The notes beneath the pieces were generated by a model. That model searched no databases and was not told the origin of the DNA. It saw only the letters and a program-made list of their open reading frames with translations. A stretch of 64,000 nt of DNA, from assembly GCA_019638255.1 (NCBI GenBank), contig JAHBUD010000002.1, positions 164,092 to 228,091 of the forward strand, given 5' to 3'. The position numbers and the translations under genes were made by a program. The stretch is from Cyclobacteriaceae bacterium. GTDB lineage: Bacteria; Bacteroidota; Bacteroidia; Cytophagales; Cyclobacteriaceae. Every line of letters starts with the position of its first letter. Within the stretch, counting starts at the first letter, position 1. Below are positions 9,415 through 34,095 of this stretch, piece after piece.

Positions 9415-9993
9415 TCAAACCAACCCGGCAAATCCCATAAACGCCATGGAAAGAATGCTGGCGGTGATTAACGCAGCTGGCACGCCTTTCATATACTCCG
9501 GTAAATCGGCACCATCGAGTTGCTCACGCAAACTGGAAAACAAAATGATCGCCAAGGTAAACCCTAACGCATTGGCGATGGCGAACACAACACTTTTTAT
9601 CAGGTTTAAATCCTGTTGCACTACCAGAATGGCCACCCCAAGGATAGCGCAGTTGGTTGTAATAAGCGGAAGATAAACACCCAATGCCTGGTATAAATCG
9701 GGGCTTACTTTTTTCATGATGATTTCAACAACCTGAACTAAAAATGCGATCACCAGGATATAGGTTATGGTTTGCATATACCCGATGTGGAAAGGAACCA
9801 GCAAATAGTGCTGGACCAGGTACGTAATGATGGTGGCGATGGTCATCACAAAAATAACTGCAGCCCCCATGCCTAATGCCGTTGAAGTATTTTTAGAAAC
9901 TCCCAGAAATGGGCAGATACCCAAAAATTTCGCCAGCACAATGTTGTTGATGAATATGGCCGATACAATAATGACGAGATAATCCATAGTCAT
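9415..9993 (-). CDS. rnfA: Rnf electron transport complex subunit A
   Basis: 192-aa polytopic protein of the RnfA/NqrE type (FINNIVLAKFLGICPFLGVS). It is the last gene of the rnf string. Confidence 0.9.
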   Translation of the reverse strand: MTMDYLVIIVSAIFINNIVLAKFLGICPFLGVSKNTSTALGMGAAVIFVMTIATIITYLVQHYLLVPFHIGYMQTITYILVIAFLVQVVEIIMKKVSPDLYQALGVYLPLITTNCAILGVAILVVQQDLNLIKSVVFAIANALGFTLAIILFSSLREQLDGADLPEYMKGVPAALITASILSMAFMGFAGLV

Positions 9994-9997
9994 TCAG

Positions 9998-10609
9998 TTA
10001 ACGTTTTATTCCAGCGCTTCGGTCTTTCAACCAATTCATCAATGCGATTAAAAAACCAAGTGAAATAAAGGCACCGGGTGCCAGGATAAACACCAACATG
10101 CCATCGCCTTCCATTAACCTGAATCCGAAAATGGAAAGGCTGCCCAACAGTTCGCGGATAGCGCCCAACAGCGTAAGGGCTAATGTAAAGCCAACGCCCA
10201 TGCCTAACCCATCCACTAAACTTGAAACCACTGTGTTTCGGGATGCAAAGGCCTCCGCCCTGCCCAACACAATACAGTTCACAACAATCAATGGAATAAA
10301 TAAACCAAGCTGTTCGTGTAAAGCCGGTGTATAGGCTTCCATTAACAACTGAACCATGGTAACAAAGGAAGCGATGATAACGATGAATGCCGGAATGCGA
10401 ACTTTATCAGGAATAAAATTTTTGATGAGTGAAACCACCAGGTTCGACATCACCAAGACAAAAACTGTAGCCACACCCATACCCAAACCATTGAATGCCG
10501 ATGAGGTAACACCCAGTGTTGGGCATAACCCCAGCAACAACACAAATACCGGGTTTTCCTTTACTAAACCTTTTATAAAATTTTCCTTATGACTCGTGTT
10601 ACTCATCAT
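9998..10609 (-). CDS. rnfE: Rnf electron transport complex subunit E
   Basis: 203-aa RnfE/NqrD-type protein (ENPVFVLLLGLCPTLGVT). Confidence 0.9.
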   Translation of the reverse strand: MMSNTSHKENFIKGLVKENPVFVLLLGLCPTLGVTSSAFNGLGMGVATVFVLVMSNLVVSLIKNFIPDKVRIPAFIVIIASFVTMVQLLMEAYTPALHEQLGLFIPLIVVNCIVLGRAEAFASRNTVVSSLVDGLGMGVGFTLALTLLGAIRELLGSLSIFGFRLMEGDGMLVFILAPGAFISLGFLIALMNWLKDRSAGIKR

Positions 10610-11180
10610 GTTTTACAGATTGAAAAGTTTCATAGGCCATTTGCACCGATTCGGAGAAGGCACGCGAACTGATGGTTGCACCGGTTATCGCATCCACTGC
10701 TCCCCCATCCTTCTTAACCTTAAGGTTTACCTTGCCGGGATTCTTTCCATAGTATTGATTAAGAAATGAAGGCAAAGTCATTTTTGATCCCAGTCCGGGA
10801 GTTTCCTTGTGCTCAAGAACTTGGATGCGGATAATGTTGCCAGCTTTGTCAAAACCAACCATCAGCCAGATGTCGCCACTATAACCCAAACCCGATTTTG
10901 TCTTTACCGCTGTTCCGATTCGCTTACCATTTCGCGTAGCAGGAAAAAATTCAAGGCTGTCTTTTCCATCCAATGTAACCACTTTATATTTTTCGGTTAC
11001 CGGATTATTATCATACCCTTCCACAACCGCCTCAATCGCTTTGAGCTGCCTCGCCATTTGTGCTTTGGCTATGGGTTCTTTGGTCCAATCAAAAACAAAA
11101 CCCAGTGACAGCGATCCTACAAAGGTGATTACCGCCAGGGTAACAATCAGATTGACAAATGATGATTTAGTTTTTGCCAT
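10599..11180 (-). CDS. rnfG: Rnf electron transport complex subunit G (FMN-binding)
   Basis: 193 aa with an N-terminal anchor and the covalent-FMN motif region DAITGATISSRA. Confidence 0.9.
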   Translation of the reverse strand: MAKTKSSFVNLIVTLAVITFVGSLSLGFVFDWTKEPIAKAQMARQLKAIEAVVEGYDNNPVTEKYKVVTLDGKDSLEFFPATRNGKRIGTAVKTKSGLGYSGDIWLMVGFDKAGNIIRIQVLEHKETPGLGSKMTLPSFLNQYYGKNPGKVNLKVKKDGGAVDAITGATISSRAFSESVQMAYETFQSVKHDE

Positions 11181-11181
11181 A

Positions 11182-12225
11182 CTACTTCGTTGAAGTCAAC
11201 TCTTTTTCAAGTTTTTCCTGATACGCTTTATGCCGTTGGGATTTAGATCCATAACGAGGTTGTTTCGCATACGAATTAATTATGGGCACAAAAGCATTCA
11301 TTATTAAAATAGCGAACGAAACGCCTTCCGGATAACTGCCGAATAAACGAATCACCACGGTTAGCACACCAATACCAACACCAAATACAATCATACCCCG
11401 ATGTGTAAAAGGTGATGTTACATAGTCGGTTGCCATAAATACAGCCCCTAACATGACGCCCCCTGTTAACAAATGAAACAATGGATTTGCAAAACGTGTG
11501 GGATCAACCAGCCAGAAAATCCCTGTCATCAAAGCAATTGTAATGAGCATAGAAACAGGGATATGCCAGGTGATAATTTTACGATAAAGCATGTAAATCA
11601 ATCCCAACAAAATCGCGAAGGCAGACATCTCCCCTAAACTTCCACCCTGAAGTCCAAAAAAGAAATCTGCATAGGAAGGCATTTGGTTCATCAGTTCAGG
11701 AACTGTATCACCAGCGCGGAGTCCATCTTTCAAAATGCCCAATGGCGTTGCGCTGGTGGTGGCATCTAACGACCATGTAGCACCCGCTTTAGGCCAGGAG
11801 GTCATCTCTACAGGAAACGACAATAACAAAAAGACCCGCCCGACAAGAGCAGGATTAAATGGATTATTTCCCAAGCCACCAAAACTCATTTTACCAATAC
11901 CGATAGCCACTGCACTGCCAATTAATATTATGTGCCAGGGTAAATTGGTTGGTACATTGAAGGCGAGTAACATTCCGGTGATGACGGCTGAGCCATCGTA
12001 AATGGAAGCCGGGCGTTTTAGCAGGTAGCGGGCAATCGAATATTCTATCACCACGCAGAAAAGTATGGCCAACAACGTTACGTATACTGCGCCTAAACCA
12101 AAATTATAAACAGAAAACACCAAAGCAGGAATCATAGCGATGATTACTCCGCGCATGATCTGTGGCACGGTTAAATCCGTATGAATATGCGGTGATGGTG
12201 AAACGGTGAGAAGTCCTGCACTCAT
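11182..12225 (-). CDS. rnfD: Rnf electron transport complex subunit D
   Basis: The ORF track gives 11182-12318. The internal ATG at 12223-12225 (MSAGLLTVSPSPHIH) forms an ATGA overlap with the rnfC stop, so it is the more likely start. Polytopic RnfD/NqrB type. Confidence 0.88.
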   Translation of the reverse strand: MSAGLLTVSPSPHIHTDLTVPQIMRGVIIAMIPALVFSVYNFGLGAVYVTLLAILFCVVIEYSIARYLLKRPASIYDGSAVITGMLLAFNVPTNLPWHIILIGSAVAIGIGKMSFGGLGNNPFNPALVGRVFLLLSFPVEMTSWPKAGATWSLDATTSATPLGILKDGLRAGDTVPELMNQMPSYADFFFGLQGGSLGEMSAFAILLGLIYMLYRKIITWHIPVSMLITIALMTGIFWLVDPTRFANPLFHLLTGGVMLGAVFMATDYVTSPFTHRGMIVFGVGIGVLTVVIRLFGSYPEGVSFAILIMNAFVPIINSYAKQPRYGSKSQRHKAYQEKLEKELTSTK

Positions 12226-13562
12226 ACGCTTTTCTGTTTTTTGAGCTGTGTTTTGCCTAATCGGATGTAATCCAGTATCGGGCGATTGGAAGGACAAACA
12301 AACGAACAGGATCCGCATTCAATACAATCCAGAATATGTTCCTCCTTAGCACGTTTATTATTTCCTTTTTTCGACATGATCAACAACCGGTATGGTTCAA
12401 GTCCCATCGGGCAGGCTTCAATACACTTTCCACAATGCACACAGTTATACACTTCAGATCGGCTTGCTTCATCTTTGGGGATAAGCAAAATACCTGATGT
12501 TCCTTTCGCTATGGGTACATCCAGATCGGCAATGGCTTTGCCCATCATGGGGCCACCACTAACAATCTTGCCGGTATCTTCCGGTACACCACCTGCAGCA
12601 ATCAGTAAATCGATAACCGGTGTACCAATCCGTACCAGAAAATTTGAAGGTTGTTTTACCGACTTACCGGTAACGGTGACTACCCTTTCGATGAGTGGTT
12701 TATTCTTTTGTACGGCCTCATAAACGGCATAGGTGGTTCCCACATTGTGAACGATAACCCCAACATCTGCCGGCAAACCACCCGAAGGTACTTCACGGTT
12801 CAGCAAGGCTTGAATCAATTGCTTCTCGCCCCCTTGAGGATAGTGTACTTCTAGCGCTTCTACACCTATGTGTTTTTCATTTTTCAATAGCTGTTGAAAA
12901 ATTTCAATGGCGTCTGCTTTATTATCTTCAATGCCAATAATGGCTTTCTGAACACCCAAAGCCTTCATCAGAATTTTTATACCAACAATAATTTCCTTTG
13001 GCTTCTCCAGCATCACGCGATGGTCAGCCGTGAGGTATGGTTCACACTCGACACCATTAATCAGTAAATGATCAATGTGTTTGCCCTCGGGTACACTTAG
13101 CTTAACATGTGATGGGAAAGCGGCACCACCCATTCCTACTACCCCAGCTTCCATTATGCGGGATACAATTTCTTTTGGGCTGAATTTAATTTCTTCAACA
13201 AGTGTATCCGTTCTGTCAATGGCCTCTTCCCAATCATCACCCTTTACACGGATATTAACAGCGGTGTGTTTAAACCCGGTACTGTCCATTACTTCTTCAA
13301 TCACACCGATACGACCCGAAACAGAGGAATGAATATTGGAGGAAACAAAGCCTTCATGGGTGGCAAGGATTTGCCCGGTTTTTACAATATCACCCCGCTG
13401 GACTACAATTTTTGCCGGTGCCCCGATATGCTGAATGATGGGTATGGTGACCATCTTAGGTAAAGACAATGGTGTAATGGCTACCTGTGCAGAAAGCTTG
13501 TTATCGTGGGGATGAATTCCTCCGGTTTTAAAGGTTTTATGCTTGTTTAGTCGCATCGCCAT
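12222..13562 (-). CDS. rnfC: Rnf electron transport complex subunit C (NADH-binding, 2x[4Fe-4S])
   Basis: 446 aa. It has two ferredoxin motifs, CVHCGKCIEACP and CIECGSCSFVCP, and the GMGGAAFP motif. Confidence 0.92.
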   Translation of the reverse strand: MAMRLNKHKTFKTGGIHPHDNKLSAQVAITPLSLPKMVTIPIIQHIGAPAKIVVQRGDIVKTGQILATHEGFVSSNIHSSVSGRIGVIEEVMDSTGFKHTAVNIRVKGDDWEEAIDRTDTLVEEIKFSPKEIVSRIMEAGVVGMGGAAFPSHVKLSVPEGKHIDHLLINGVECEPYLTADHRVMLEKPKEIIVGIKILMKALGVQKAIIGIEDNKADAIEIFQQLLKNEKHIGVEALEVHYPQGGEKQLIQALLNREVPSGGLPADVGVIVHNVGTTYAVYEAVQKNKPLIERVVTVTGKSVKQPSNFLVRIGTPVIDLLIAAGGVPEDTGKIVSGGPMMGKAIADLDVPIAKGTSGILLIPKDEASRSEVYNCVHCGKCIEACPMGLEPYRLLIMSKKGNNKRAKEEHILDCIECGSCSFVCPSNRPILDYIRLGKTQLKKQKSV

Positions 13563-14481
13563 TTTGTTGTTGGGCAGCCTGGGCTGCTAATTTTTCTTCT
13601 TCCTTTTTTTTACGTGCACGTTCTTCCAACCGAATTCTATGATCCGTAGCATGCTTGATTTTTTCATCGGGTACGTTAGCAGTAATGATGTTGCGCACAT
13701 CGCAGGTCTCCACACACTCCAGGCATAAGGTGCATTTCTCCGGATCAATAGCGGCCAGACTATTATTTATGGTAATAGCATCATACCGGCAAGCTTCGAA
13801 ACACTTCGCACAGCCGGAACATGCCACTGCACACTCTTTGCGTGCCGTACTGCCTTTCTCTTCATTGAGGCAAGCCACAAAAATGCGTTTGTTCTTTTTG
13901 CCTTTTGGCCAGAGTTCAAGAATATTTTTCGGACATTCCTTTACACAAGCATTGCAGGCTGTACAGTTATCTTCTATAACTACAGGCAGGCCAGTCTTCT
14001 CGTCCATGTACATGGCTTCGAAGTCGCACACATCAACACAATCGCCCATGCCCAGGCATCCGTAGGCGCAACCGGTATCACCACTGTAAAGGGTAGCGGC
14101 AATTTTACATGATTCCGCCCCATCATAGATGCTTGTTTTCTTGCGATGCTCAAATGAACCGGAGCAACGAACAACAGCAATGTAGGGATCGCGTTCTACC
14201 GCTGCGATGCCAAGAATTTCCGCCACTTGCTTCATCACCGCATTGCCGCCAACTGGACAGTGCAGCTCCTTTAAACTTTCGGCATCAACCACAGCCTTGG
14301 CAAAAGCCTTGCAACCGGGTTGTCCGCAACCTCCACAATTGGTGTTGGGTAATACATTTTCTACCGCACCAATACGCTCATCTTCTACCACCTGAAATTT
14401 TTGTGAAACGAGGTAGATGATGGCCGCTGCGAAAATTCCAAGCCCTGTTAAAATCAGTACGGTATTTAATAACACGGTCAT
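13537..14481 (-). CDS. rnfB: Rnf electron transport complex subunit B (polyferredoxin)
   Basis: 314 aa with an N-terminal anchor, CGGCGQPGC, and several CxxCxxCxxxC(P) motifs. Confidence 0.9.
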   Translation of the reverse strand: MTVLLNTVLILTGLGIFAAAIIYLVSQKFQVVEDERIGAVENVLPNTNCGGCGQPGCKAFAKAVVDAESLKELHCPVGGNAVMKQVAEILGIAAVERDPYIAVVRCSGSFEHRKKTSIYDGAESCKIAATLYSGDTGCAYGCLGMGDCVDVCDFEAMYMDEKTGLPVVIEDNCTACNACVKECPKNILELWPKGKKNKRIFVACLNEEKGSTARKECAVACSGCAKCFEACRYDAITINNSLAAIDPEKCTLCLECVETCDVRNIITANVPDEKIKHATDHRIRLEERARKKKEEEKLAAQAAQQQNGDATKQA

Positions 14482-14909
14482 CGCTTTAGGACTTCAAATT
14501 TGCAGGATTGATTAAAACGCTGGCGGATTAGATAGAGCATGCTGTAGTAGGGCACCAATACCAATACGGCCACAAGCCCGGCAACACCTTCATGAACATG
14601 GAAGGCCAGTGCCGTTATCATCGATGCCATAATCAATACGAAAGGTAAAGTATACATCCATGCTACCGCTGTAAAGCCTGCTGATGGTTTCATGCGTACC
14701 AGCACTTCATCACCAACCTGAAAGGTGTAGTCGGCACAAGGCACCTCCACCTCTCGTTGGGAAATATCGCGCAGCATGCATAAACTTTTATGGCACGATG
14801 AGCAACCGCCTGACCCAACCAACGCAATCTTCATCATGCCTTGGTTGAGTGAACTGATAAATCCCGGTTGCTCAATGTAGCTGGTCATACTATTAGGCTG
14901 TAGTTTCAA
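14478..14909 (-). CDS. rseC: RseC/MucC-family (SoxR-reducing-system) small membrane protein
   Basis: 143 aa. An N-terminal Cys cluster (GGCSSCHKSLC) is followed by two TM helices. The position directly upstream of rnfB is typical. An alternative start at 14888 (MTSYIEQPG) is possible. Confidence 0.7.
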   Translation of the reverse strand: MKLQPNSMTSYIEQPGFISSLNQGMMKIALVGSGGCSSCHKSLCMLRDISQREVEVPCADYTFQVGDEVLVRMKPSAGFTAVAWMYTLPFVLIMASMITALAFHVHEGVAGLVAVLVLVPYYSMLYLIRQRFNQSCKFEVLKR

Positions 14910-15954
14910 CTCCCATTCTCTTCCGCACTGGGTAATTGTTCAGCATCTGTAAACTGGTGCGAACAATTTCGCCCATGGTGTTGCACTTCAGAAAAGTGTC
15001 ATCACCGTAAAGTTCGGCTAATCCTTCGCGCAGCTGGTGTGTGTTCTCTATTGTCGAAAGCTCAACGTTTGCCATGGCATCCAGTAATGCCGTTAGCTGC
15101 ATCCCGGCTGCACGTACCCTGTTCAGCAGGCGCATGCGCTCCTCTTTCTGATATTGCAGCTCCAATACAACCGACATGGTTTTAAATCCCAGGTTTATGA
15201 TGGGACTATTCTCTTTAAAGAACTGCGGCATGTAAATGGTGTGGCTGCCCTCATAGCATTGCTGATCGAAATCAATAGCCCGAAGGCGGAAGTACAGCTC
15301 ATCAAAATCGGGTATAATCTCGACCACGAAGTTATCCTTGCGCATATCGCCCAATAATTGTACGAGGCAGCGCTCATTAAACTTTACAAACTCCTTGGCA
15401 ATACGAAGCGGATTGAAGGAATGATCCTCCTTAAGGTATTGATGAATAAAAGCATCGCCCGGTATGCCCTGAATATGCTCCTCGATAAACGTGTTGCCCG
15501 AGGTGAGGTAATTGATTTTGTTGGGTGACAGTTGGTGCTCCAATTCCATTCCATAGATGCGCGAAGCATCTGAACGCTTGATGTAGAAATAATCAAATAA
15601 ATCGTTAAGCTTGTTTACAATGCGTACGCGGAAAGGATGAGTGTTGGCATAAAGACAATAATCTACCCGATCGATGTATAAGTGATCAATCACTGAAGTA
15701 TCACCGGCAACTTTCAACTGTGCATAAACTTTTCGAAGAGCTTCGTGTAAATACGTCCGGTCTGATTCTGAATAAATCATGGTTTCCCAAAGTGTATCAC
15801 GACCTTGCTTATCAAACAGCGTGATGGCACCGCTTGATCGCAGTAAGTCTTGATAACTTATGGGCGCGTCAATTTCACGGTTTGTTGCAATCAGGTATTT
15901 TCTTAGCTGATCGCTAACTGGAAAGACGGGCTTTTTAAACCGGATGGCAGCCAT
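14893..15954 (-). CDS. Hypothetical protein with protein-kinase-like (RIO/Kdo-kinase-like) motif pattern
   Basis: 353-aa soluble ORF with no family I can name. It has YIKRSD, a hinge-like EEHIQGIPG, a catalytic-loop-like LGDMRKDNFVV, and a DFG-like AIDFDQ. Confidence 0.5.
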   Translation of the reverse strand: MAAIRFKKPVFPVSDQLRKYLIATNREIDAPISYQDLLRSSGAITLFDKQGRDTLWETMIYSESDRTYLHEALRKVYAQLKVAGDTSVIDHLYIDRVDYCLYANTHPFRVRIVNKLNDLFDYFYIKRSDASRIYGMELEHQLSPNKINYLTSGNTFIEEHIQGIPGDAFIHQYLKEDHSFNPLRIAKEFVKFNERCLVQLLGDMRKDNFVVEIIPDFDELYFRLRAIDFDQQCYEGSHTIYMPQFFKENSPIINLGFKTMSVVLELQYQKEERMRLLNRVRAAGMQLTALLDAMANVELSTIENTHQLREGLAELYGDDTFLKCNTMGEIVRTSLQMLNNYPVRKRMGVETTA

Positions 15955-15960
15955 AGTGCG

Positions 15961-16470
15961 CTACTGAAATTCAGATTTGATACTGGCCACCCATTTTTCA
16001 ATACGGCCTGCCGTCAGGTCTTTCTGATTGTCTTCATCGATCACAAGCCCTAAAAACTTTCCATCGTAAATACTTTTGGAGGCTTCAAAGTTGTAACCTT
16101 CCGTTGGCCACCAGCCCACCACCGTTACACCTTTGTCTTTAATGCGTTCATGGATAATACCCGGTGCATCAATAAAGGTGTCCGGATATCCATCGGCATC
16201 GCCCAGTCCAACATAGGCTATCTTTTTGCCGGCAAAATCAACATCGGCAAGCTCATCGATAAAGCTCTCCCAATCTTCCTGCAACTGGCCGATTTCCCAG
16301 GTAGGACATGCGAGAATCAGGTATGGGTAAGGTTGCATATCATCGGCTGTTGCCGAGTTTACGTTGTGCAACGCGGCTACATCTTCGCCACCGAGTTGCT
16401 TTTGAATTTCAGTAACTATACGTTCTGTGTTTCCTTCGGTAGAGCCATAAAAAATTCCAATTTTTGCCAT
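15961..16470 (-). CDS. fldA: Long-chain flavodoxin
   Basis: 169 aa with MAKIGIFYGSTEGNTE as the FMN phosphate loop, and a length typical of FldA. Confidence 0.9.
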   Translation of the reverse strand: MAKIGIFYGSTEGNTERIVTEIQKQLGGEDVAALHNVNSATADDMQPYPYLILACPTWEIGQLQEDWESFIDELADVDFAGKKIAYVGLGDADGYPDTFIDAPGIIHERIKDKGVTVVGWWPTEGYNFEASKSIYDGKFLGLVIDEDNQKDLTAGRIEKWVASIKSEFQ

Positions 16471-16509: not shown

Positions 16510-17556
16510 CTATTCCGCATGTTCATTCGGATCATGCAACTCACCGTGCTTCGGATGGTACTGCATAAATACTTCCGACCGCATGAGTATATCTACATAC
16601 TGTGCCCGCTTATAGGCAAACGGGTCAATCATATTTTCTTTGGATAACGCACCCTTAAAATCGTTGATGGAGGTGTATCCCTTTTTGTCCATCCATTGCT
16701 CCAGGTCATCCAGCATGGTTTCAAGCTGACTGATACCACGCTTATAGATAGCACTTACTACCTGAACGGCATCGGCTCCGGCCAACAACATTTTTACCAC
16801 ATCCGCACCGGAAAAAATTCCCGTGTTGCTGATGATGCTGGCATCAATCTTACTATACAGTAATCCGGCAAACCGTAAAGCCAGTCGGTTATCGTTTTCA
16901 CTACTGAAGTTATAGGGGAAATGATGCCCTTCCTTTTCAATATCAATATCGGGCTGGAACAAGCGGTTGAACAACACAAAACCTGAAGCACCAAGCTTAT
17001 CCATTTTTGAAATTACCGAAAGCGAATTGGTGTAAAACGGACTAAGCTTTACAATAACCGGAATACGAATGGCATGCTTTACTGCACGAAGGGTATCCAG
17101 TTGCCGCTGCACAATCGCTGCGCCATCGGCATCAAAGTCGAGTTCGCTGGCATAAAAATTCAATTCCAAAGCATCGATACCCGTTTCGGACATCTTCTGT
17201 GCATACTCCACCCACGTATCTTCATAAACACAATTCAAACTTCCGATTAAAGGAATGGAGATGGCATTTCGTGCCTGGCGCAATTTCAGCAAATGCTCAG
17301 AAGGACCACCATGTTTTAATTTTGGAAAGAATGATTCATGCTCAGCATCCCAGTTGCTGTATTTTTCATGAACATGTTCCATGTCGAGCGATTCGAGTTG
17401 AATCTGTTCCTCAAACAACGATTTATAAACGATGGCAGCAGCGCCTGCTTTTTCAAGTTTCACCAGGTTGTCCAGATCACTTACCAGGTTGCTTGCTCCA
17501 ACTACAATTGGGTTTTTTAAGGTTAACCCGCAGTATCTTGTTCTTAAGTCGGCCAT
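16510..17556 (-). CDS. Dihydroorotate dehydrogenase-like TIM-barrel flavoprotein (not a bona fide PyrD)
   Basis: 348 aa with a PyrD class 1-like N-terminus (GLTLKNPIVVGAS) and a C-terminal FMN-phosphate region (GIFSGADVVKMLLAGADAVQV). The catalytic N-x-S-C-P-N block is replaced by ELNFYASE. Confidence 0.75.
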   Translation of the reverse strand: MADLRTRYCGLTLKNPIVVGASNLVSDLDNLVKLEKAGAAAIVYKSLFEEQIQLESLDMEHVHEKYSNWDAEHESFFPKLKHGGPSEHLLKLRQARNAISIPLIGSLNCVYEDTWVEYAQKMSETGIDALELNFYASELDFDADGAAIVQRQLDTLRAVKHAIRIPVIVKLSPFYTNSLSVISKMDKLGASGFVLFNRLFQPDIDIEKEGHHFPYNFSSENDNRLALRFAGLLYSKIDASIISNTGIFSGADVVKMLLAGADAVQVVSAIYKRGISQLETMLDDLEQWMDKKGYTSINDFKGALSKENMIDPFAYKRAQYVDILMRSEVFMQYHPKHGELHDPNEHAE

Positions 17557-17567
17557 GGCTATTGCAT

Positions 17568-20500
17568 TTAAGAGGTTACTTGTTCAGATAAATGTAGAAT
17601 GTCCTTTGCGCGTTGCTCATTATCCCTTTTGGCCAGTTCGGTCAATCGTACGGCTTCTTCGGGATCAGAGAGGTTAAGTGTTTTGTACCGGATTTCTGCA
17701 TCCAGATAATCGTTGAAGTTAACGGCATCTTCTGTGGTAGGAACATCCCACGTAAACGGATTCTGACCATCGGCACGCAGATCAGGATTGAACCTGTACA
17801 TTGGCCAGTAACCACACTTCACGGCTTTCTCCGATTGCTTTTTAGCAAACTTCATGTCGTAGCCGTGCGCAATACAAGGTGAGTATGCGATTATAATAGA
17901 AGGACCATTATGTTTTTCAGCCTCCACAAAAGCAAGCGCTGTTTTTTCCCGATCCATGCCCATGTTAACTACCGCCACATAAGCATTGCCATAGGTAGTC
18001 ATCATGAGTCCGAGATTTTTCTTACCCATTTTTTTACCGTTGGATGCAAACTTGGCCACTGCACCACGAGGGGTTGCCTTGGAAGCCTGACCACCGGTGT
18101 TGGAATACACTTCGGTATCGAGCACGAGCAGGTTTACATTTCGGTTGGAGGCCATTACGTGATCAAGCCCGCTAAAGCCGATGTCGTAGGCCCAGCCATC
18201 GCCACCAAAAATCCATACACTCTTATCTACAAAATAATCCTGTAACTCAATTACTTTTTCGAGCAATGCCCTTTCTTCTTTACCAACAGTTTTTAATTCT
18301 GCTGCCAGCAAAGGCTTCAGGGCATCGGCATGGTCCTTTGCTTCATTCGTGTGTTCATTGAACAAGGCCAATGCCTTTTCAAGCGCTGACTTAACCTCAG
18401 GAGTTTTTACTTTCGGCAGTAAAGCTTCTGCATTTGTTTTGAGCTGTTTGCGGTTTGCATCTACTGCGAGCCGGATGCCAAAACCATATTCAGCATTGTC
18501 TTCAAATAATGAGTTGGCCCATGCAGGTCCTCTTCCCCTTTTATCTTTTGTATACGGTGTTAACGGGAAGGTTCCACCATAAATAGAAGTACAACCTGTA
18601 GCGTTGGCGATAATCATACGGTCGCCAAAAAGTTGTGTAGCCAGGTGGATGTAGGGTACTTCACCACAACCGGAACAGCTTGGAGGATATTCGAGATAGG
18701 GTTCAGCAATGTAAGGCTCTTGCACAAAAGGAAGTTTGTCAATCCAGGTGGCAGGATTGCCCGGCACGCCACGGTATTCAAGTTTTTTTGTACCGGTAGG
18801 CACCGCGCCATTCAACGGCATCAGCGATACCGGAATGTTATCACCTTTTAATCGTAGAATCGGATCCACCACCAGCCGTGCGAAATCATCGGAGCCAGCC
18901 GGAATCAATTCGGATATTTCAGCATACTTTTCAGACTCGGCAGGAACAGGCACCTCAATAATATTATCACAGGTTACATCAATAGCCTTCCAGTTCATCT
19001 CAATAATCTCACGGCCCTTCCGGGCGAACTGTTCTTCAATGTGCTCCTTAATCGTGGTAATTGCCTGTGCCTCCGGCAGTACACCCGACACTTTGAAAAA
19101 GGCTGTCTGCATTACAGAGTTGATTCTTCCTCCAAGGCCAACACTCTTGGCAATTTTGGAAGCATCAATGGCGTATACCTTAATTTTTTTCTTCCAGATT
19201 GTTTCCTGCATATCGCGGGTGAACAACCTGAAAATATTTTCAGGCTTTTGGCTGCTGTTGATCAGGAACGTACCCCCTTCGGTAATGCCCTCTAGAATAT
19301 CGTACTGGCCAATGTATTGTGGACGGTGCAAGGCAACAAAATCAACCTTATTCAACAAGTACTCCGATTGAATTGGATTTTTACCAAAACGCAAATGCGA
19401 AACAGTATACCCGCCTGATTTATTCGAATCATACTGGAAATAGCCTTGCACAAACAGATCGGTGCTATCGCCAATAATTTTAATGGCATTTTTATTGGCA
19501 CTCACCGTACCGTCTGAACCATAGCCCCAGAACTTGCAGCGTACAATACCTTCTTGTTCGGTATCAATCTCTTCTTTTACCGGTATGGATTTATGTGTCA
19601 CGTCATCGTTGATGCCTACGGTAAAACCATGCCAGCCATTATTATCGAGATGATCGAATACGGCTTTCACCAGCGATGGCGTAAATTCCTTTGAGGATAA
19701 ACCATATCGGCCTCCGATAATCTGAATGTCGGGCCGACTGCGAAGTGCTGCCACCACATCTAAAAAGAGGGGATCGCCTAACGCACCAGGTTCTTTCGTG
19801 CGATCAAGCACGGCTATTTTTTTAACGCCCTCGGGTATAACGGCAAGAAAATCTTCCAATGCAAATGGCCTGTACAGGCGAACCTTCACCGCGCCTACTT
19901 TTTCTCCATTGCGTGTTAGATAATTTATGGTCTCTTCTATGGTTTCAGTAGCTGATCCCATTGAAATCAGAATCTTTGTAGCGTTGGGGTCGCCTACATA
20001 TTCGTAAAGGTTGTAAGTCCTTCCGGTTTTCTTTGCGAACAATTCCATGTACTTCTTCACAACACCCGGGCACGCATCGTAATACTTATTCACCGTTTCT
20101 CGGCCTTGAAAATACACATCGGGGTTTTGCGCACCGACTTTGCATACCGGTGCTTCCGGCTTCAATGCGTGCTTACGAAATTCCTCAACATATTTCATGT
20201 CGAGCATGGATTTTAGATCACTGTAATCCAGCGGAATAATTTTTTGTATGGAATGCGAGGTGCGGAAGCCATCGAAAAAATGCAAGAAAGGAATTCTGGA
20301 TTCCAGCGTTGAAAGGTGTGCAATGGTTGCCATGTCCTGCGCTTCCTGCACATTACCCGATGATAACAAGGCAAAACCGGTTCCGCGTGTTGCCATTACA
20401 TCGGAGTGATCGCCAAATATCGATAGGGCCTGACAGGCCAATGAACGTGCCGAAACGTGAAATACTGTAGGAATCATTTCACCGGCAATCTTGAACATAT

Positions 20501-20798
20501 TGGGCACCATGAGCATCAGTCCTTGCGATGCCGTAAACGTGGTAGCCATAGCCCCACCCGACAGGGCACCATGAATGGCCCCGGCCGCTCCGGCTTCCGA
20601 TTGCATCTGCACAACATCTACAGATTCACCGAAAATATTTTTTCTGCCCTCTGCCGACCAGGCATCTGCCCGTTCGCCCATATCCGATGAAGGTGTAATC
20701 GGGTAAATGGCAGCCACTTCACTAAAGGCGTAGGCAATGTTGGCTACTGCCGTATTGCCATCGGTATTGATATACGCTGATTTTTTCTCTTTGGCCAT
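17568..20798 (-). CDS. nifJ: Pyruvate:ferredoxin/flavodoxin oxidoreductase (NifJ-type single-chain PFOR) lacking the ferredoxin domain
   Basis: 1076 aa with IYPITPSS, a TPP-binding GGDGWAYDIG...NTGGQ block and proximal-cluster cysteines (CSGCGE, ATGCTS, YSPCIAHG). No CxxCxxCxxxCP motif occurs anywhere in the protein. Confidence 0.9.
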   Translation of the reverse strand: MAKEKKSAYINTDGNTAVANIAYAFSEVAAIYPITPSSDMGERADAWSAEGRKNIFGESVDVVQMQSEAGAAGAIHGALSGGAMATTFTASQGLMLMVPNMFKIAGEMIPTVFHVSARSLACQALSIFGDHSDVMATRGTGFALLSSGNVQEAQDMATIAHLSTLESRIPFLHFFDGFRTSHSIQKIIPLDYSDLKSMLDMKYVEEFRKHALKPEAPVCKVGAQNPDVYFQGRETVNKYYDACPGVVKKYMELFAKKTGRTYNLYEYVGDPNATKILISMGSATETIEETINYLTRNGEKVGAVKVRLYRPFALEDFLAVIPEGVKKIAVLDRTKEPGALGDPLFLDVVAALRSRPDIQIIGGRYGLSSKEFTPSLVKAVFDHLDNNGWHGFTVGINDDVTHKSIPVKEEIDTEQEGIVRCKFWGYGSDGTVSANKNAIKIIGDSTDLFVQGYFQYDSNKSGGYTVSHLRFGKNPIQSEYLLNKVDFVALHRPQYIGQYDILEGITEGGTFLINSSQKPENIFRLFTRDMQETIWKKKIKVYAIDASKIAKSVGLGGRINSVMQTAFFKVSGVLPEAQAITTIKEHIEEQFARKGREIIEMNWKAIDVTCDNIIEVPVPAESEKYAEISELIPAGSDDFARLVVDPILRLKGDNIPVSLMPLNGAVPTGTKKLEYRGVPGNPATWIDKLPFVQEPYIAEPYLEYPPSCSGCGEVPYIHLATQLFGDRMIIANATGCTSIYGGTFPLTPYTKDKRGRGPAWANSLFEDNAEYGFGIRLAVDANRKQLKTNAEALLPKVKTPEVKSALEKALALFNEHTNEAKDHADALKPLLAAELKTVGKEERALLEKVIELQDYFVDKSVWIFGGDGWAYDIGFSGLDHVMASNRNVNLLVLDTEVYSNTGGQASKATPRGAVAKFASNGKKMGKKNLGLMMTTYGNAYVAVVNMGMDREKTALAFVEAEKHNGPSIIIAYSPCIAHGYDMKFAKKQSEKAVKCGYWPMYRFNPDLRADGQNPFTWDVPTTEDAVNFNDYLDAEIRYKTLNLSDPEEAVRLTELAKRDNEQRAKDILHLSEQVTS

Positions 20799-20871: not shown

Positions 20872-20885
20872 CTGATTTATATCAG
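20872..20885. promoter_or_regulatory. Perfect palindrome CTGAT-TTAT-ATCAG in the divergent nifJ / crp-fnr promoter region
   Basis: Read directly as aatgCTGATttatATCAGgtt. The centre is about 80 nt upstream of the nifJ ATG and about 100 nt upstream of the regulator ATG. Confidence 0.5.
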
Positions 20886-20978: not shown

Positions 20979-21575
20979 ATGATACCGGATAAAATATTGA
21001 CGCAATACCATGCACGCCTTGTACGTTTGCGCAAAGACCAGGTGCTTTTTGAGGAAGGCTCCAATGCCACTGACTATTTTCAGGTAGCAGAAGGCGAAGT
21101 GCGCATGTACATCCTCAATCATGAAGGGCAGGAATTTACCCAAGGTATTTTTCATGCCGGTGAGAGTTTTGGAGAACCTCCCTTGTTTGGAAATTTTGCT
21201 TACCCCAGCACTGCCGTTGCACTCACACCAGGGAGCGTTTGGCGCTTACCGAAAGTTGAATTTTTTGAGTTGCTTAAAAATAACTTCGACATCCACTTAA
21301 AATTGAACCACGTGCTTTGCAACCGGCTTCAATATAAGTCGATGATTCTCACCGAAATTTCATCGCACACACCGGAGCACCGATTAACCACCATATTAAA
21401 ATACCTCAAATCGAAAATTGCCCCTGAGTCGGAAACGGAGAAAATGATCATTCCCTATACCCGGCAACAATTGGCTGACATGACCAGCCTGCGGGTGGAG
21501 ACGGTTATACGCACCATTAAGCGCATGGAAAAGGAAGGCAAGGTAGAGTTGGAAGGGCATAAGATTTTGTTTTGA
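20979..21575 (+). CDS. Crp/Fnr-family transcriptional regulator (no N-terminal Cys cluster)
   Basis: 198 aa with a cNMP-binding-like beta-roll (GESFGEPPLF) and a C-terminal HTH. The recognition helix SLRVETVIRTIKRM matches the FNR-type E--xR pattern. Confidence 0.85.
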   Translation: MIPDKILTQYHARLVRLRKDQVLFEEGSNATDYFQVAEGEVRMYILNHEGQEFTQGIFHAGESFGEPPLFGNFAYPSTAVALTPGSVWRLPKVEFFELLKNNFDIHLKLNHVLCNRLQYKSMILTEISSHTPEHRLTTILKYLKSKIAPESETEKMIIPYTRQQLADMTSLRVETVIRTIKRMEKEGKVELEGHKILF

Positions 21576-27131: not shown

Positions 27132-27899
27132 TTACAAATCCTTGCGGCTAAAAATCCTCGTTGCACCCCATACCGGAAGGGTAATCCATAGGGCTAATAC
27201 AACTGATGAAAATATCAGCCCTCTGCTGCTACCGAAAAACTCTTTATAAAATGCACCGGTATAGCCCATTAATGCAGAAATATCCAACTGAAGTAGCATG
27301 AGTATCCGAGCCAGGTCAACCGGGTTGAGTGATATCAATGCCAGTGTAGCTTTTTCAAGCGGATAATCCATAAAGGTGTAGATGATCCACATCAACAGGC
27401 CATCATAAATCAAAGAAAAGTAAAACCAGAATAACAACGCCACGCCAATGGCTTTAGCTTTATCGCGGGTAAGCACCGAAGAAAGAAAGGCCAGTGAAAC
27501 AAAAACGAGTGTAAGCATAATGCCTGAATACAAGAGCGTAAATCCACTGGCATCGGCACCGTATAGAACCATCGGTAACCCCACCCCTGCCGTAAAAGCA
27601 AAACAAAGTGAAATGGCTACCGCGAAATATTCACTAAGAAATATGACCCTCCGATTTACGGGCTGCGATAGCATTAACTCAATAAACTCATACGAATTAT
27701 AAAAGTGAATGGTGCTGAAAACAATACTCACCAACGGCACCACCATCAACACAATATTCATCAAGCTTAAAATTACCTTACCGGTATCCGTATCAAGTTG
27801 AAACATGGCCACCGTACACAGCAACAGAAAGAGCGTGTAGAGCATAATAAACCGCGTTCGCAGGATATCGTAAAAAACATATTTAACAATTCTTACCAT
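27132..27899 (-). CDS. nosY: Nos maturation ABC transporter permease NosY
   Basis: 255-aa, 6-TM ABC-2-type permease directly after nosF in the nosDFY order. Confidence 0.85.
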   Translation of the reverse strand: MVRIVKYVFYDILRTRFIMLYTLFLLLCTVAMFQLDTDTGKVILSLMNIVLMVVPLVSIVFSTIHFYNSYEFIELMLSQPVNRRVIFLSEYFAVAISLCFAFTAGVGLPMVLYGADASGFTLLYSGIMLTLVFVSLAFLSSVLTRDKAKAIGVALLFWFYFSLIYDGLLMWIIYTFMDYPLEKATLALISLNPVDLARILMLLQLDISALMGYTGAFYKEFFGSSRGLIFSSVVLALWITLPVWGATRIFSRKDL

Positions 27900-27908
27900 G
27901 ATGTTGAT

Positions 27909-28652
27909 TTATTCATTGGTGGTGATCTTAACATCTACATGCTTTTCTTCCAGGCCTCGAATCAATTTGGCCATCGCTTTACCCAGCTTTTGTTCACTGG
28001 TAATATCTTTTAGCTCTTCAACGGAGTTGTTATACCGAACATGCCCTTCCTGAAGGTAAACCACTTCCGTGGAGAGCTCATCGAGGTCACTCATAATGTG
28101 TGAGGTAATGATGAGTAACTTTCCGGCTTCCTTTTCTTTAAGAATTTTTTCTTTCAGGATTTCTACTGACACCGGATCCAATCCAGCCGTGGGCTCATCT
28201 AAAAATAAAATGGGTGCGTGAAATAAAAAGGCCAATGCCGCACTTACTTTCTGGCGGGTTCCACCCGATAAGGTATGCATCCGCTTATCGAACATTCTAT
28301 CCAATCGGAAGGATTCAATCAATTCATCATCTACCAGCGGTGGATTGTTCCGGATGTTCCGCATCATATCAAACAACTGCCCGATGCGCATATTATCCGG
28401 GTACCGACCAATTTGTGGCATGTAACCAATCTTCTCCCGATAGTGCCAGTGATGCTTAATGATTTCGCCATCGACCACAATATTGCCCGAGGTAGGTATC
28501 ACCATACCCAACACACTTTTAATGAGCGTAGTTTTACCCGATCCGTTGGGGCCAATAAGCGCATACGATTTACCCGAAGCAAACTCAACACTTACTCCAT
28601 CCAGCGCCCACAGCTTTCCGAATTTCTTTTTAAGTTGTTGTATTGAGATCAT
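27909..28652 (-). CDS. nosF: Nos maturation ABC transporter ATPase NosF
   Basis: 247 aa with Walker A GPNGSGKT, the signature LSGGTRQK and Walker B LFLDEP. Confidence 0.9.
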   Translation of the reverse strand: MISIQQLKKKFGKLWALDGVSVEFASGKSYALIGPNGSGKTTLIKSVLGMVIPTSGNIVVDGEIIKHHWHYREKIGYMPQIGRYPDNMRIGQLFDMMRNIRNNPPLVDDELIESFRLDRMFDKRMHTLSGGTRQKVSAALAFLFHAPILFLDEPTAGLDPVSVEILKEKILKEKEAGKLLIITSHIMSDLDELSTEVVYLQEGHVRYNNSVEELKDITSEQKLGKAMAKLIRGLEEKHVDVKITTNE

Positions 28653-29898
28653 AAGGCTTCATGCTTGGATAGTCGTCTTTTAAATTTTCAGGGGTAACTG
28701 CCGGAAAAACTTTTTCAGCGCGGTCGAGCAGATAAACCAAAAAACTGCGCCATAATAGCACTGCAGTGGGTATACGTTCAACAATCATAGTATACATATT
28801 AACCGGGCGATGCGGCACATCGCCAATGCCATCGCGATTTAAATCATAACCCTGGTATTTATCCCAATAATTACGGTTGATGGTATTGAGTACAAGCGTT
28901 CCATTCGTGGCAAAATCGAACGTGTTGCGCTTGAAATTATTCCCGGTAAACGTATTGGCATCGCAGCTGGCTTGCAGTTTAATAGCCCAGCCGTTTTCCG
29001 AAAATAGATTTCCGGTAAACTCTGTGCGGCTTGTGCCCTCCATATAAATGGCTATGGTGTTTTGAATAAACCGGTTATTCAACACCTGGCTATCGCTGAT
29101 ATCTTTTAACAATAAACCATACACACTATTGCCCCAGTTTTTTTCGAATACATTATAAGTCATCTTAACGTTGCGCGTGTACATCACAGCAACACCGGCA
29201 CCATTCTCCCTGAAAATATTGTTATGATATTCATCATCATGCGAAAACATAAAGTGCAGACCATAACGCAGGTTATGCTCACTCAGGTTTCCTTCAATAA
29301 CGGATTGCGTTACAAACTCAAAGTAAATCCCGTCACGGTGCCCGCGAATGGTGTTTTTTCGGATGATAGCCTGTGAACATTGCCACAAGTGAATACCATT
29401 TCCGGTTTCGTACTCATTACGTACTGCGGCCTGAAAAACATTATCTTCGATAACACTGAACCCACTGTTTGACAAATGCACCCCGAAGAAAGTATTGATG
29501 AATTCGTTCTTACGGATTGTAAGGAAGTCGGCTTGCAAAGCCCCAATTCCAGCGAGATCCTTCATACTGGAGGTTCCGCTGTTCACGATTTTAAATCCTG
29601 CAATGGTAACATGCCTTGCGGCTACGGTAAATACTTCTGTTTTGTATTCTCCGTCAATCTCAGGCTTGCTTTCACCCAGCAACACCAGGGTCTTGTCAAC
29701 AATAATATTTCCTTCGCGGTAAATCCCGGGTTTCACGATAATCGTATCACCCGGAAGTGCTATAGCTATTGCCTGCCGGATACTTTTAATCTGCCCACCC
29801 GGCTGTACCACTATACTACCTGCCATTGTAGCGGCCGACAATAATAAGAGTGTGATGGTTGTATTTATTCGTATTGGATTCATTTTGCGTGGCGACAA
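28630..29898 (-). CDS. nosD: Periplasmic beta-helix copper-binding maturation protein NosD
   Basis: 422 aa with a signal peptide and repeated parallel-beta-helix units (N.F..N..GI.L). It sits between nosL and nosF. Confidence 0.88.
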   Translation of the reverse strand: MSPRKMNPIRINTTITLLLLSAATMAGSIVVQPGGQIKSIRQAIAIALPGDTIIVKPGIYREGNIIVDKTLVLLGESKPEIDGEYKTEVFTVAARHVTIAGFKIVNSGTSSMKDLAGIGALQADFLTIRKNEFINTFFGVHLSNSGFSVIEDNVFQAAVRNEYETGNGIHLWQCSQAIIRKNTIRGHRDGIYFEFVTQSVIEGNLSEHNLRYGLHFMFSHDDEYHNNIFRENGAGVAVMYTRNVKMTYNVFEKNWGNSVYGLLLKDISDSQVLNNRFIQNTIAIYMEGTSRTEFTGNLFSENGWAIKLQASCDANTFTGNNFKRNTFDFATNGTLVLNTINRNYWDKYQGYDLNRDGIGDVPHRPVNMYTMIVERIPTAVLLWRSFLVYLLDRAEKVFPAVTPENLKDDYPSMKPYDLNTTT

Positions 29899-29944
29899 AG
29901 TTCATCCTGAATATACTGCTTCAAATCAAACAGCAATATCAGGA

Positions 29945-30379
29945 CTATTTAAACTGTGTTGTCAATTCTCCCCAGGTAAGGTAAATACCGTTCCATTGCT
30001 TTTTATGTTCGTTCTTACTTTCATCCGTTTCAAAAGATGCCACCTGGCTAGCCATCGGGCTTCTTACTTCCGGAGATTTAATATAAAATGCTTCACCTGC
30101 ACCAATTAGTTTTTCGGGTTGGGCGTAATCAATCACGAGTTTATACGCTACGTCACGATCTTCGACATCTTCAGAGTCGATGAAACCGATCATGCAGTTC
30201 ACATCATCGAACTTGTATACTTTTCCTTTTGTCGTGACTACTTCTGCTCCAAAACGCTTATCCATTATGGTCATTTTACAAGCGTAGCATTGATCCTTAC
30301 CGAACACAATGGGTTCAGGTTTAACCTGGCAACCCAACAGTACAACAGCAGCAAAAAAAATAGTGGCAATTGTTTTCAT
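29945..30379 (-). CDS. nosL: Copper chaperone lipoprotein NosL
   Basis: 144 aa with the lipobox LLGC and the motif CYACKMTI. Confidence 0.85.
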   Translation of the reverse strand: MKTIATIFFAAVVLLGCQVKPEPIVFGKDQCYACKMTIMDKRFGAEVVTTKGKVYKFDDVNCMIGFIDSEDVEDRDVAYKLVIDYAQPEKLIGAGEAFYIKSPEVRSPMASQVASFETDESKNEHKKQWNGIYLTWGELTTQFK

Positions 30380-30963
30380 AACGATGCTGATTTTGGGTAT
30401 TTAAAAATTTCAAGTGCTAATACAGCCATTATCGCGAGGCCAACAACTAAAAATACCCACCCGCCAATATCAGGACCAGAAAATGCCGTAAAGTTCAGCA
30501 ATTGTTTTGTGCCAATAAGTGGAGGTTGGTAGGCCATACCAGGTACGACAATAGGCGCTGTGGGATCGAGGTTGTGCCCGTAGTCATAACCCCACAGGTA
30601 AAAGTCGACCAAGGCAGCAATACCGGTGGCTACAAACAACACGGTAAATGCAGCCAACATAAACCTACGGTTCGCCAGCGCGGTGAGTAGCCCAAAGCCA
30701 ATAAGTGCAACAACAATGTATTTCATGTATCCAAACTCAGGAAACATACTAACTTCAATATGCTTCATGCCGATGTAGTGATTCAACGCACTGATGATTT
30801 TAACATCGCCTGTCAGGTTATCAATCCAAATTTTCATTTCCAACCCTTCCGGATACTGTGGCGCCCACATCAATATTTGCCATAACGGTACAAAGAATGC
30901 ACTGACCATGGCCAGTGAAGCTATTGCGATGATGATGCGAGTCGATGTTTTTAACTTTTTCAT
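30376..30963 (-). CDS. nosB: Clade II nos-associated integral membrane protein (NosB-like)
   Basis: 195 aa with about 4 TM segments. It lies immediately downstream of nosZ, as in clade II clusters, and has an ATGA overlap with nosL. Confidence 0.6.
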   Translation of the reverse strand: MKKLKTSTRIIIAIASLAMVSAFFVPLWQILMWAPQYPEGLEMKIWIDNLTGDVKIISALNHYIGMKHIEVSMFPEFGYMKYIVVALIGFGLLTALANRRFMLAAFTVLFVATGIAALVDFYLWGYDYGHNLDPTAPIVVPGMAYQPPLIGTKQLLNFTAFSGPDIGGWVFLVVGLAIMAVLALEIFKYPKSASL

Positions 30964-30979
30964 AAGATCATACTTTGGT

Positions 30980-31030
30980 AAGCGCCCCTTCCCGATTCCG
31001 TTAGCGCAGAACGGGACTGGGCGCTTTTTT
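30980..31030. other. Long imperfect stem-loop in the nosZ-nosB intercistronic gap
   Basis: AAGCGCCCC...CCGTT-agcgcag-AACGG...GGGCGCTT, followed by TTTTT on the plus strand (antisense to the nos genes). Confidence 0.45.
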
Positions 31031-31069
31031 CAACCTGCAAACTATGGAAACGCAGGGTGGTCAGTGCCA

Positions 31070-33046: not shown

Positions 33047-33068
33047 TATCGTTTAGTTATTGTTAGAT

Positions 33069-33614: not shown

Positions 33615-33633
33615 ATAGACTGGGTTTTGGTGA

Positions 33634-34095
33634 TTATTTCTCGCCATCATTTTGACGCATAAACTCCAGAATGTCGCGTGCATCGCCAATGGATACATTC
33701 TGGTTAGGCATGCGCATCAAGCACAGCTCCAGTAACTTTTGAGCTTCTTCGTCCTCATCCAGCATCACATCCACGTTGGTGATCATGTTCATGATCCATT
33801 CCGGTTTTCTGCGCTTGGTTATATCCTGGAAACCGGGTCCTACTACACGTTGATCGTCAAGCTTATGACATGCTGAACACTTCATTTCATAAATATCCAG
33901 GCCTCGTTGAACCCGCTCGGCATCCAAAGGATTATGAAGGGTAACATTCTTTACCTGTCCGATTCCTTTAGTAGGGTCTGTCACTTCTTCAACAGCGCTT
34001 TTCATAGCACCGGTAGTCTCGCTTACCTGAGGTTTATCTGGAGCACAAGCCGCCAGTATAGCAGCGGCAACAAGAACAGTCATCAGCTTTTTCAT
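33634..34095 (-). CDS. Monohaem c-type cytochrome lipoprotein (nos-cluster cytochrome)
   Basis: 153 aa with the signal/lipobox LAAC and a single CSACH haem motif. It is the first gene of the nos string. Confidence 0.85.
   Translation of the reverse strand: MKKLMTVLVAAAILAACAPDKPQVSETTGAMKSAVEEVTDPTKGIGQVKNVTLHNPLDAERVQRGLDIYEMKCSACHKLDDQRVVGPGFQDITKRRKPEWIMNMITNVDVMLDEDEEAQKLLELCLMRMPNQNVSIGDARDILEFMRQNDGEK

Follow-up and report, generated by a model that had tools for sequence, protein, structure and literature searches.

A conserved single-chain pyruvate:ferredoxin oxidoreductase lacking its intramolecular ferredoxin domain, encoded beside a flavodoxin in Cyclobacteriaceae

A NifJ-type enzyme without domain V

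A two-cluster ferredoxin domain, domain V, is treated as a defining feature of single-chain pyruvate:ferredoxin oxidoreductases (PFORs). The gene at the centre of this analysis encodes an enzyme of this kind in which that domain is missing. It lies on the minus strand (17568-20798) of a 64,000-nucleotide stretch of a Cyclobacteriaceae genome (the window; positions 164,092 to 228,091 of contig JAHBUD010000002.1, assembly GCA_019638255.1) and stands at the head of a same-strand array of genes for a flavoprotein resembling dihydroorotate dehydrogenase (DHOD), a long-chain flavodoxin and, further downstream, a complete Rnf complex. Its product, 1076 amino acids in length, is a NifJ-type single-chain PFOR with the domain order I-II-III-IV-VI. 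Proteins of this form, single-chain PFORs that have no domain V (the intramolecular 2x[4Fe-4S] ferredoxin domain), are called V-less below.

The assignment follows from family profiles and from alignment to known structures. Pfam recognises five domains along the chain, POR_N (residues 22-251), PFOR_II (273-363), POR (427-607), EKR (632-678) and TPP_enzyme_C (858-970), and a search of the entire 1076-residue protein matches no family of the Fer4 type. TIGR02176, the NCBIfam PFOR equivalog, is matched in two stretches with 1485.6 bits (cutoff 911.35); the best scores against the NCBIfam families of two-subunit 2-oxoacid:ferredoxin oxidoreductases (OFORs) fall far under their cutoffs. In a phmmer search of the PDB, residues 6-683 and 793-1168 of the Moorella thermoacetica enzyme (6cin, 1260 bits) pair with residues 12-687 and 692-1070 of the query, and the matching ranges of the Desulfovibrio africanus enzyme (1b0p, 1214 bits) are 5-685 and 799-1166. 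The aligned parts are colinear and free of internal gaps, and the ~110 residues that the alignment skips (6cin 684-792) are therefore domain V; the gap falls at residues 687-692 of the query, where no residual motif is left. The window protein shares with these two NifJ-type enzymes (1B0P, 6CIN) the order I-II-III-IV-...-VI, the thiamine pyrophosphate (TPP) motif and the four proximal cysteines. Unlike them, it lacks domain V with its two CxxCxxCxxxCP motifs for the medial and distal clusters, and unlike the D. africanus enzyme it also has no domain VII.

The junction at which domain V is missing spans residues 675-708 (18675-18776, minus strand) and reads YRGVPGNPATWIDKLPFVQEPYIAEPYLEYPPSC. 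Domain IV ends in ...EYRGVPGNPATWI and is followed by a short conserved linker, KLPFVQEPYIAEPYLEYPPS, and then by the first cysteine of the proximal cluster. The core of domain VI (17874-18677, minus strand) keeps all four of these cysteines, in CSGCGE (C708, C711), ATGCTS (C736) and YSPCIAHG (C975), together with the GDG...N motif that belongs to the TPP/Mg site. In an alignment of 42 V-less homologues, where the mean column identity is 82%, the four cysteines are invariant, as is the longer TPP/Mg motif GDGW...DTEVYSNTGGQ, G865-G868 included. In a six-frame scan of the entire 64-kb window, CxxCxxCxxxC[P] is confined to RnfB and RnfC. This rules out that the window encodes domain V in another frame, where a frameshift would have hidden it, or as a separate delta-like open reading frame (ORF) near the gene. 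The initial annotation of this stretch had described a single-chain PFOR without the 2x[4Fe-4S] domain, with no CxxCxxCxxxCP motif in its 1076 residues and with the proximal-cluster cysteines retained. The sequence that it quoted for the junction matches the translation, and its description is borne out by Pfam, where Fer4 families are absent, by TIGR02176, by the motif scan, by the 42 homologues and by the alignments to the Moorella and D. africanus enzymes, which skip domain V and leave no complete ferredoxin domain.

The same form is widely conserved. A protein-database search returned at least 120 protein clusters (the best 120 were examined) with 77-92% identity to the window protein; all are 1064-1092 amino acids long, and all have the same five Pfam domains and no Fer4 match. 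The assemblies behind them come from NCBI, JGI, ENA and Logan, and the named sources are Cyclobacteriaceae, Bacteroidota and Bacteroidia metagenome-assembled genomes (MAGs) and Imperialibacter. In a scan with one genome per species, from which the best 80 PFOR loci were taken, six loci (L001-L006) are V-less. Five of them (L001-L004 and L006) belong to Cyclobacteriaceae, Ohtaekwangia or Bacteroidetes MAGs, and L005 is from an Alkalispirochaeta MAG, its V-less PFOR being 65% identical to that of the window. None of the other 74 genome loci holds a further full-length PFOR without a Fer4 motif, and nearly all have both motifs. The boundaries of the deletion, set against L011-L014 and other sequences that keep domain V, are identical in all seven V-less sequences aligned with MAFFT (the window and L001-L006).

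An unusual length is the sole point in favour of a deletion introduced during sequencing or assembly, or of a decaying pseudogene, and the chance that either reading is correct appears negligible. The reading frame is intact and the cofactor ligands are invariant within a protein of high column identity. The recurrence of one architecture in at least 120 clusters from four sources and in six independent genome assemblies with the same boundaries rules out the assembly deletion that the initial annotation had considered. The junction, moreover, is conserved: 66% of positions 676-707 are at least 90% conserved, compared with 68% for the whole protein, and this conservation exceeds that of domain IV and of the helical insert of domain VI. 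A junction as conserved as the protein average argues that the segment is under constraint and is no neutral scar, and on these sequence comparisons the artefact or pseudogene reading can be regarded as refuted.

Distribution and origin of the V-less form

A neighbour-joining tree of 75 full-length PFORs, built without bootstrapping from the columns common to all, gathers the V-less sequences, L005 included, into a single clade. This clade is nested among domain-V-keeping PFORs of Verrucomicrobiota, Victivallaceae and Spirochaetia (L011-L014), and the closest relative that keeps the domain is L012 of the Verrucomicrobiota. In the simplest reading of the pattern, domain V would have been excised once in an ancestor, and the V-less form would then have spread vertically in Cytophagales and possibly also by lateral transfer. 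The branch outside Bacteroidota rests on one MAG contig, L005. A metagenome scan seeded with the Alkalispirochaeta protein, of which the best 80 loci were kept, yielded no more V-less relatives of the Alkalispirochaeta type among the loci listed: domain V is kept in 79, the exception being L082.

In L082 (3514-6996 on contig WNGL01031265.1) a PFOR of ~1138 amino acids has lost both cysteine motifs of domain V in frame and keeps the C-terminal tail of the domain (…IPVSCPAKDKQQVGRKAINMA…), with a DHOD-like gene directly downstream; the contig either records a second loss, independent of the first, or is an artefact. A further PFOR-like protein, P0412 (L162, 8001-11177), has 1058 amino acids (40% identity); its domain V is reduced to a degenerate stub (CETCPLQQEGCDGVAC), and EKR is absent. 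The gene is part of a glycyl-radical-enzyme microcompartment locus, together with those for a PFL-like enzyme and its activase, for BMC shell proteins and EutN, and for an aldehyde dehydrogenase, an Fe-ADH and PTAC. Judged by their sequences, L082 and P0412 look like independent reductions of domain V and suggest at least three losses in all. Among representatives clustered at 50% identity, most short matches still have domain V and lack the helical insert of domain VI instead, and P0412 is the only short one with a degenerate stub. These representatives do not map the spread of the V-less form, as V-less sequences were apparently clustered under representatives that keep the domain.

Gene cassette and genomic setting

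From PFOR to rnfA the minus strand carries an unbroken array in which neighbouring genes overlap or are separated by gaps of at most 39 nt. The gene for the DHOD-like protein (16510-17556; 348 amino acids, an FMN TIM-barrel of the PRK07565 family) starts 11 nt past the PFOR stop. It is followed by the gene for a long-chain flavodoxin of 169 amino acids (15961-16470), the proposed electron acceptor, which matches TIGR01752 (flav_long) over residues 3-169 with 222.4 bits (cutoff 146.75). After it come the genes for a conserved hypothetical protein of 353 amino acids (14893-15954) and for a small RseC/MucC-like membrane protein (14478-14909; PF04246, 75 bits), which overlaps the genes on both sides. 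The array ends in a complete Rnf cluster, RnfA-E and RnfG (9415-14481), whose genes, recognised with Pfam and NCBIfam, overlap or abut: rnfB (13537-14481; 314 amino acids, FeS and several Fer4 stretches), rnfC (12222-13562; Complex1_51K and RnfC_N), rnfD (11182-12318; NQR2_RnfD_RnfE), rnfG (10599-11180; FMN_bind), rnfE (9998-10609; Rnf-Nqr) and rnfA (9415-9993; Rnf-Nqr). This continuation of the operon goes beyond what the initial annotation had described.

The core of PFOR, DHOD-like protein and flavodoxin recurs in L001-L004 and L006, in L081 (a TARA Imperialibacter scaffold) and in the P0117 contig, which is known from its gene table only. The gene for the 353-residue protein stands next in the cassette in the window, L001-L004, L006 and L081, and not in the P0117 contig. 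L081 also encodes a KorAB-like two-subunit OFOR (615 + 348 amino acids), likewise without a ferredoxin domain. The flavodoxin gene is thus part of the cassette in all eight Bacteroidota V-less contexts. Near domain-V-keeping PFORs a flavodoxin gene was met once in 74 genome loci (L058, 5 kb away) and in none of 79 metagenome loci, or once in 153 altogether; linkage to flavodoxin is specific to the V-less Bacteroidota clade.

The DHOD-like protein is not a true DHOD. It matches NF005741 ('dihydroorotate dehydrogenase-like protein') with 372.8 bits, scores far under every true PyrD equivalog and aligns to DHOD 1B-type structures with an E of 1e-9 only. The catalytic loop ELNISCPN of 5ksw is ELNFYASE here, and the cysteine base is absent; a DHOD function was accordingly rejected. 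Six PFOR-linked members of the family from five phyla have an invariant SLFEEQ motif and a common ELN(F/I)(Y/F) loop. These six have no conserved cysteine and no conserved Cys/Ser base, from which it follows that the family itself holds no Fe-S cluster. The homologous barrels of class 1B DHOD and dihydropyrimidine dehydrogenase exchange electrons, through their FMN, with the Fe-S cluster of a partner. The PFOR-linked protein resembles these systems in being a PF01180 FMN TIM-barrel encoded beside an Fe-S enzyme and differs from them in the replaced catalytic cysteine and in having no Fe-S domain of its own. Most likely it binds FMN and acts in redox chemistry connected with PFOR.

The association with PFOR is not confined to the V-less clade. 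DHOD-like genes lie beside domain-V-keeping PFORs in five of the 74 genome loci, with otherwise unrelated neighbours (Verrucomicrobiota L012, Chlorobiota L068, Bryobacteraceae L070, Actinomycetota L071 and Bacteroidales L075), and adjoin 12 of the 79 domain-V-keeping metagenome loci, in addition to L082. Loci L104, L111, L115, L119, L122, L131, L133, L134, L150, L151 and L152 are among the metagenome examples. Altogether, ~11% of the sampled domain-V-keeping PFOR loci, in at least five phyla, have the gene, and because of this the DHOD-like protein is not a dedicated replacement of domain V; its family looks like a widespread, uncharacterised partner of PFOR. A pan-genome study of Propionibacterium reports a PFOR flanked by GltD-like and DHOD-like genes, the products of which are postulated to act together (PMC7650540). 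No GltD- or PyrK-like partner of the DHOD-like protein is encoded in the window.

The 353-residue protein has no Pfam or NCBIfam match, and a profile search against PDB sequences was also empty. Its family is very large (8000 matches), with invariant motifs, GDMRxDN and IDFDQ, reminiscent of the catalytic loop of kinases and of a DFG-like motif. An AlphaFold2 (AF2) model with a pLDDT of 58.6 gives weak Foldseek matches to PI3K Vps34 and to protein kinases (E of at least 0.014). The protein may be an atypical kinase that regulates the PFOR module.

Divergent from PFOR, a gene on the plus strand (20979-21575) encodes a Crp/Fnr-family regulator (cNMP_binding and HTH_Crp_2). A candidate Crp/Fnr box, the palindrome CTGAT-N4-ATCAG (20873-20884), lies ~80 nt upstream of the PFOR start. 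Its core, TGAT-N4-ATCA, has 10 copies in the window where 1.75 would be expected (the other sites include 34198-34209, 37904-37915 and seven more), and it is also found upstream of PFOR in L006 and L081. Three copies are placed 80-110 nt upstream of gene starts, those of the PFOR operon, of the nos operon (at its cytochrome c gene) and of a tandem-Usp gene, which suggests a common Crp/Fnr-type regulon, perhaps under the divergent regulator. The nos cluster (27132-34095, minus strand) is of the clade II type and comprises nosZ (31070-33046), nosD, nosF and nosY besides genes for a cytochrome c and a fasciclin protein. At 34518-36944 the same strand encodes a P-type Cu-ATPase whose N-terminal domain is CcoI-like. 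The organism probably reduces N2O without being a denitrifier, or else lives as a microaerobe; the nos cluster and the candidate palindrome are consistent with expression of PFOR under low oxygen. A gene for a PIN-domain toxin (TIGR00305; 21984-22340, plus strand) is situated between the Crp/Fnr regulator gene and an acyltransferase gene.

Electron exit and its implications

The chemistry expected of the V-less PFOR is conventional. With domains I, III and VI intact, pyruvate would be decarboxylated on TPP and acetyl-CoA made as in any PFOR, after which the two electrons would leave singly via the lone cluster. A precedent is offered by StOFOR1 and StOFOR2 of Sulfolobus tokodaii, which have no domain V and whose sole cluster corresponds to the proximal one (PMC5020499). 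Domains III and VI border a large pocket with this cluster close to its surface, and superposing the cognate ferredoxin on D. africanus domain V has allowed it to be modelled into the pocket (PMC5020499). Because of this precedent and the architecture of the window protein, the electrons would have to leave the proximal cluster by a route other than domain V. By analogy with the Sulfolobus structures, the cluster would be near the surface of the domain III/VI pocket, and an external carrier could dock in the space that domain V has vacated.

The likeliest carrier is the long-chain flavodoxin, whose gene is the second one downstream of PFOR, because its linkage is strict and specific to the clade and because PFOR occurs in natural fusions with flavodoxin, CPR and flavodiiron proteins. 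The PFOR-flavodoxin fusions P0404 and P0393 show that flavodoxin is a direct partner of PFOR elsewhere. Fusions seen among distant representatives (P0362, P0404, P0393, P0390, P0375 and P0365) join PFOR to a GltD-like part (Fer4_20 and Pyr_redox_2; P0362), to flavodoxin, to a flavodiiron-like part (ODP and flavodoxin) or to CPR (the PNO type). Reduced flavodoxin would probably be re-oxidised by the Rnf complex of the same operon, giving NADH and an ion gradient. The best explanation of the locus is a functional, NifJ-like pyruvate:acceptor oxidoreductase of the homodimer type that kept the proximal [4Fe-4S] cluster alone after a single ancestral, in-frame excision of domain V, and that reduces flavodoxin directly and Rnf through it. 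Taken as a whole, this explanation has roughly an even chance (about 0.5) of being right.

Several observations weigh against it. Coupling to Rnf is not universal in the V-less clade: rnf genes follow the cassette only in the window, L002 and L006. The flank of L001, which is long enough, shows none, the flanks of L003 and L004 end in or just past the gene for the 353-residue protein, and in L081 (15988-18878, minus strand) and the P0117 contig the place of rnf is taken by genes for a two-subunit OFOR, convergent with the cassette, and then by nuoLMN-like genes. Near the V-less PFOR of L005 (8 kb upstream and 2 kb downstream) there is no flavodoxin, DHOD-like or rnf gene; its neighbours encode a histidine kinase, a glycosidase and a glycosyltransferase. 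An AF2 model of the window PFOR, based on a shallow alignment of 42 close homologues (mean pLDDT 57.8, pTM 0.44), is too poor to judge the exposure of the cluster or its cover by the linker. Finally, the tightly linked DHOD-like gene has no role in the flavodoxin model.

The DHOD-like protein would have such a role if it were a bound subunit at the former domain V site, its FMN taking electrons from the proximal cluster and acting as a two-electron buffer that passes them to flavodoxin or to another substrate. A one-cluster enzyme holds only one of the two electrons, so such a buffer is mechanistically attractive, and electron exchange with a partner's Fe-S cluster is established for the homologous barrels. 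The gene, so close behind PFOR, is present in every Bacteroidota V-less locus, the missing catalytic and conserved cysteines show that its product is not a pyrimidine enzyme, L082 combines its own loss of the cysteine motifs with a DHOD-like neighbour, and the cooperation postulated for Propionibacterium (PMC7650540) points in the same direction. The 17 occurrences beside domain-V-keeping PFORs, however, imply a role that predates the loss of domain V and is independent of it. L012, the nearest relative with the domain, already has the gene, and L005 has none nearby; the six long PFOR fusions examined include no fusion with a DHOD-like protein, and at 38 kDa this protein is three times the size of domain V. 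An FMN subunit in place of domain V is on balance unlikely. The initial annotation had put forward the flavodoxin and the DHOD-like protein together as candidate acceptors; the former is strengthened by its eight of eight against one of 153 linkage, and the case for the latter as a specific stand-in for domain V is weakened by its absence at L005 and its presence beside complete PFORs of at least five phyla.

Free ferredoxin is the carrier of Halobacterium-type OFORs that have no domain V. The Sulfolobus-type enzymes without the domain use it as well (PMC5020499), and for the window PFOR the acceptor might likewise be a separate 2x[4Fe-4S] ferredoxin, encoded elsewhere in the genome, or RnfB with its polyferredoxin part, which would dock in trans as the delta subunit does in four-subunit PFORs and leave flavodoxin and the DHOD-like protein to other purposes. 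The length of RnfB, with its several Fer4 stretches, would suit this arrangement, as would L005, where no flavin protein is a neighbour of PFOR. The 64-kb window, though, has no ORF for a PorD-like or other small ferredoxin, the linkage to flavodoxin is strict and clade-specific, and rnf is not always adjacent to the cassette; a ferredoxin acceptor seems quite improbable.

The preferred reading, direct reduction of flavodoxin by the proximal cluster, has partial parallels in known systems. Flavodoxin is the physiological one-electron acceptor of PFOR in the NifJ/NifF pair of Klebsiella and the PFOR/FldA pair of Helicobacter. In these, as in the fusions P0404 and P0393, PFOR and flavodoxin genes are linked or fused, as at the present locus; they differ from it in keeping the two-cluster domain or subunit, so that flavodoxin docks at the distal and not at the proximal cluster. 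The Sulfolobus OFORs, one-cluster enzymes of aerobic archaea that the V-less PFOR should resemble in function, share with it the proximal [4Fe-4S] cluster alone and the expectation of an external carrier at the pocket beside domain VI (PMC5020499). They belong to another OFOR lineage, with an (alpha-beta)2 composition, the order III-I-II plus VI and no domain IV (PMC5020499), whereas the window enzyme is one chain in the NifJ order and keeps domain IV (EKR). With lineage and architecture so different, the loss of domain V in the V-less PFORs is convergent with that in the archaeal OFORs.

In the open-access literature, searched as full text, no account of a V-less enzyme was found, and the PFOR-linked DHOD-like family is described nowhere except for one speculative remark on Propionibacterium. 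To our knowledge, all single-chain PFORs studied structurally or electrochemically carry three clusters. A 2025 survey of PFOR redox properties treats single-polypeptide PFORs as three-cluster enzymes, the OFORs overall having one to three (PMC12337175). In public annotation, V-less proteins appear as plain 'pyruvate:ferredoxin (flavodoxin) oxidoreductase', and the missing domain is not flagged.

A conserved one-cluster PFOR offers a natural test of the part that domain V plays in rate, reversibility, radical lifetime and oxygen sensitivity, and it shows that loss of this domain arose convergently in bacteria and in aerobic archaea. A further point of interest is the uncharacterised DHOD-like flavoprotein, whose gene is linked to that of PFOR in many phyla. 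Still more doubtful than an FMN subunit as such is the idea that the V-less PFOR, the DHOD-like protein and flavodoxin, perhaps with the 353-residue protein, form an undescribed all-flavin system of electron exit, with the FMN barrel at the domain V site. If it were true, the barrel would buffer the two electrons, the PFOR complex would spare iron and might tolerate oxygen better, largely aerobic Cytophagales could make low-potential reductant, fed here to Rnf, and the DHOD-like family would be a general, uncharacterised PFOR partner across at least six phyla. In the preferred reading, with flavodoxin as direct acceptor, the module would be an iron-sparing pyruvate:flavodoxin oxidoreductase that needs no ferredoxin and has 4 Fe per monomer instead of 12. 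This suggests an economy of iron, 4 Fe and flavodoxin as against 12 Fe and ferredoxin, in environmental (soil and water) Bacteroidota that respire N2O.

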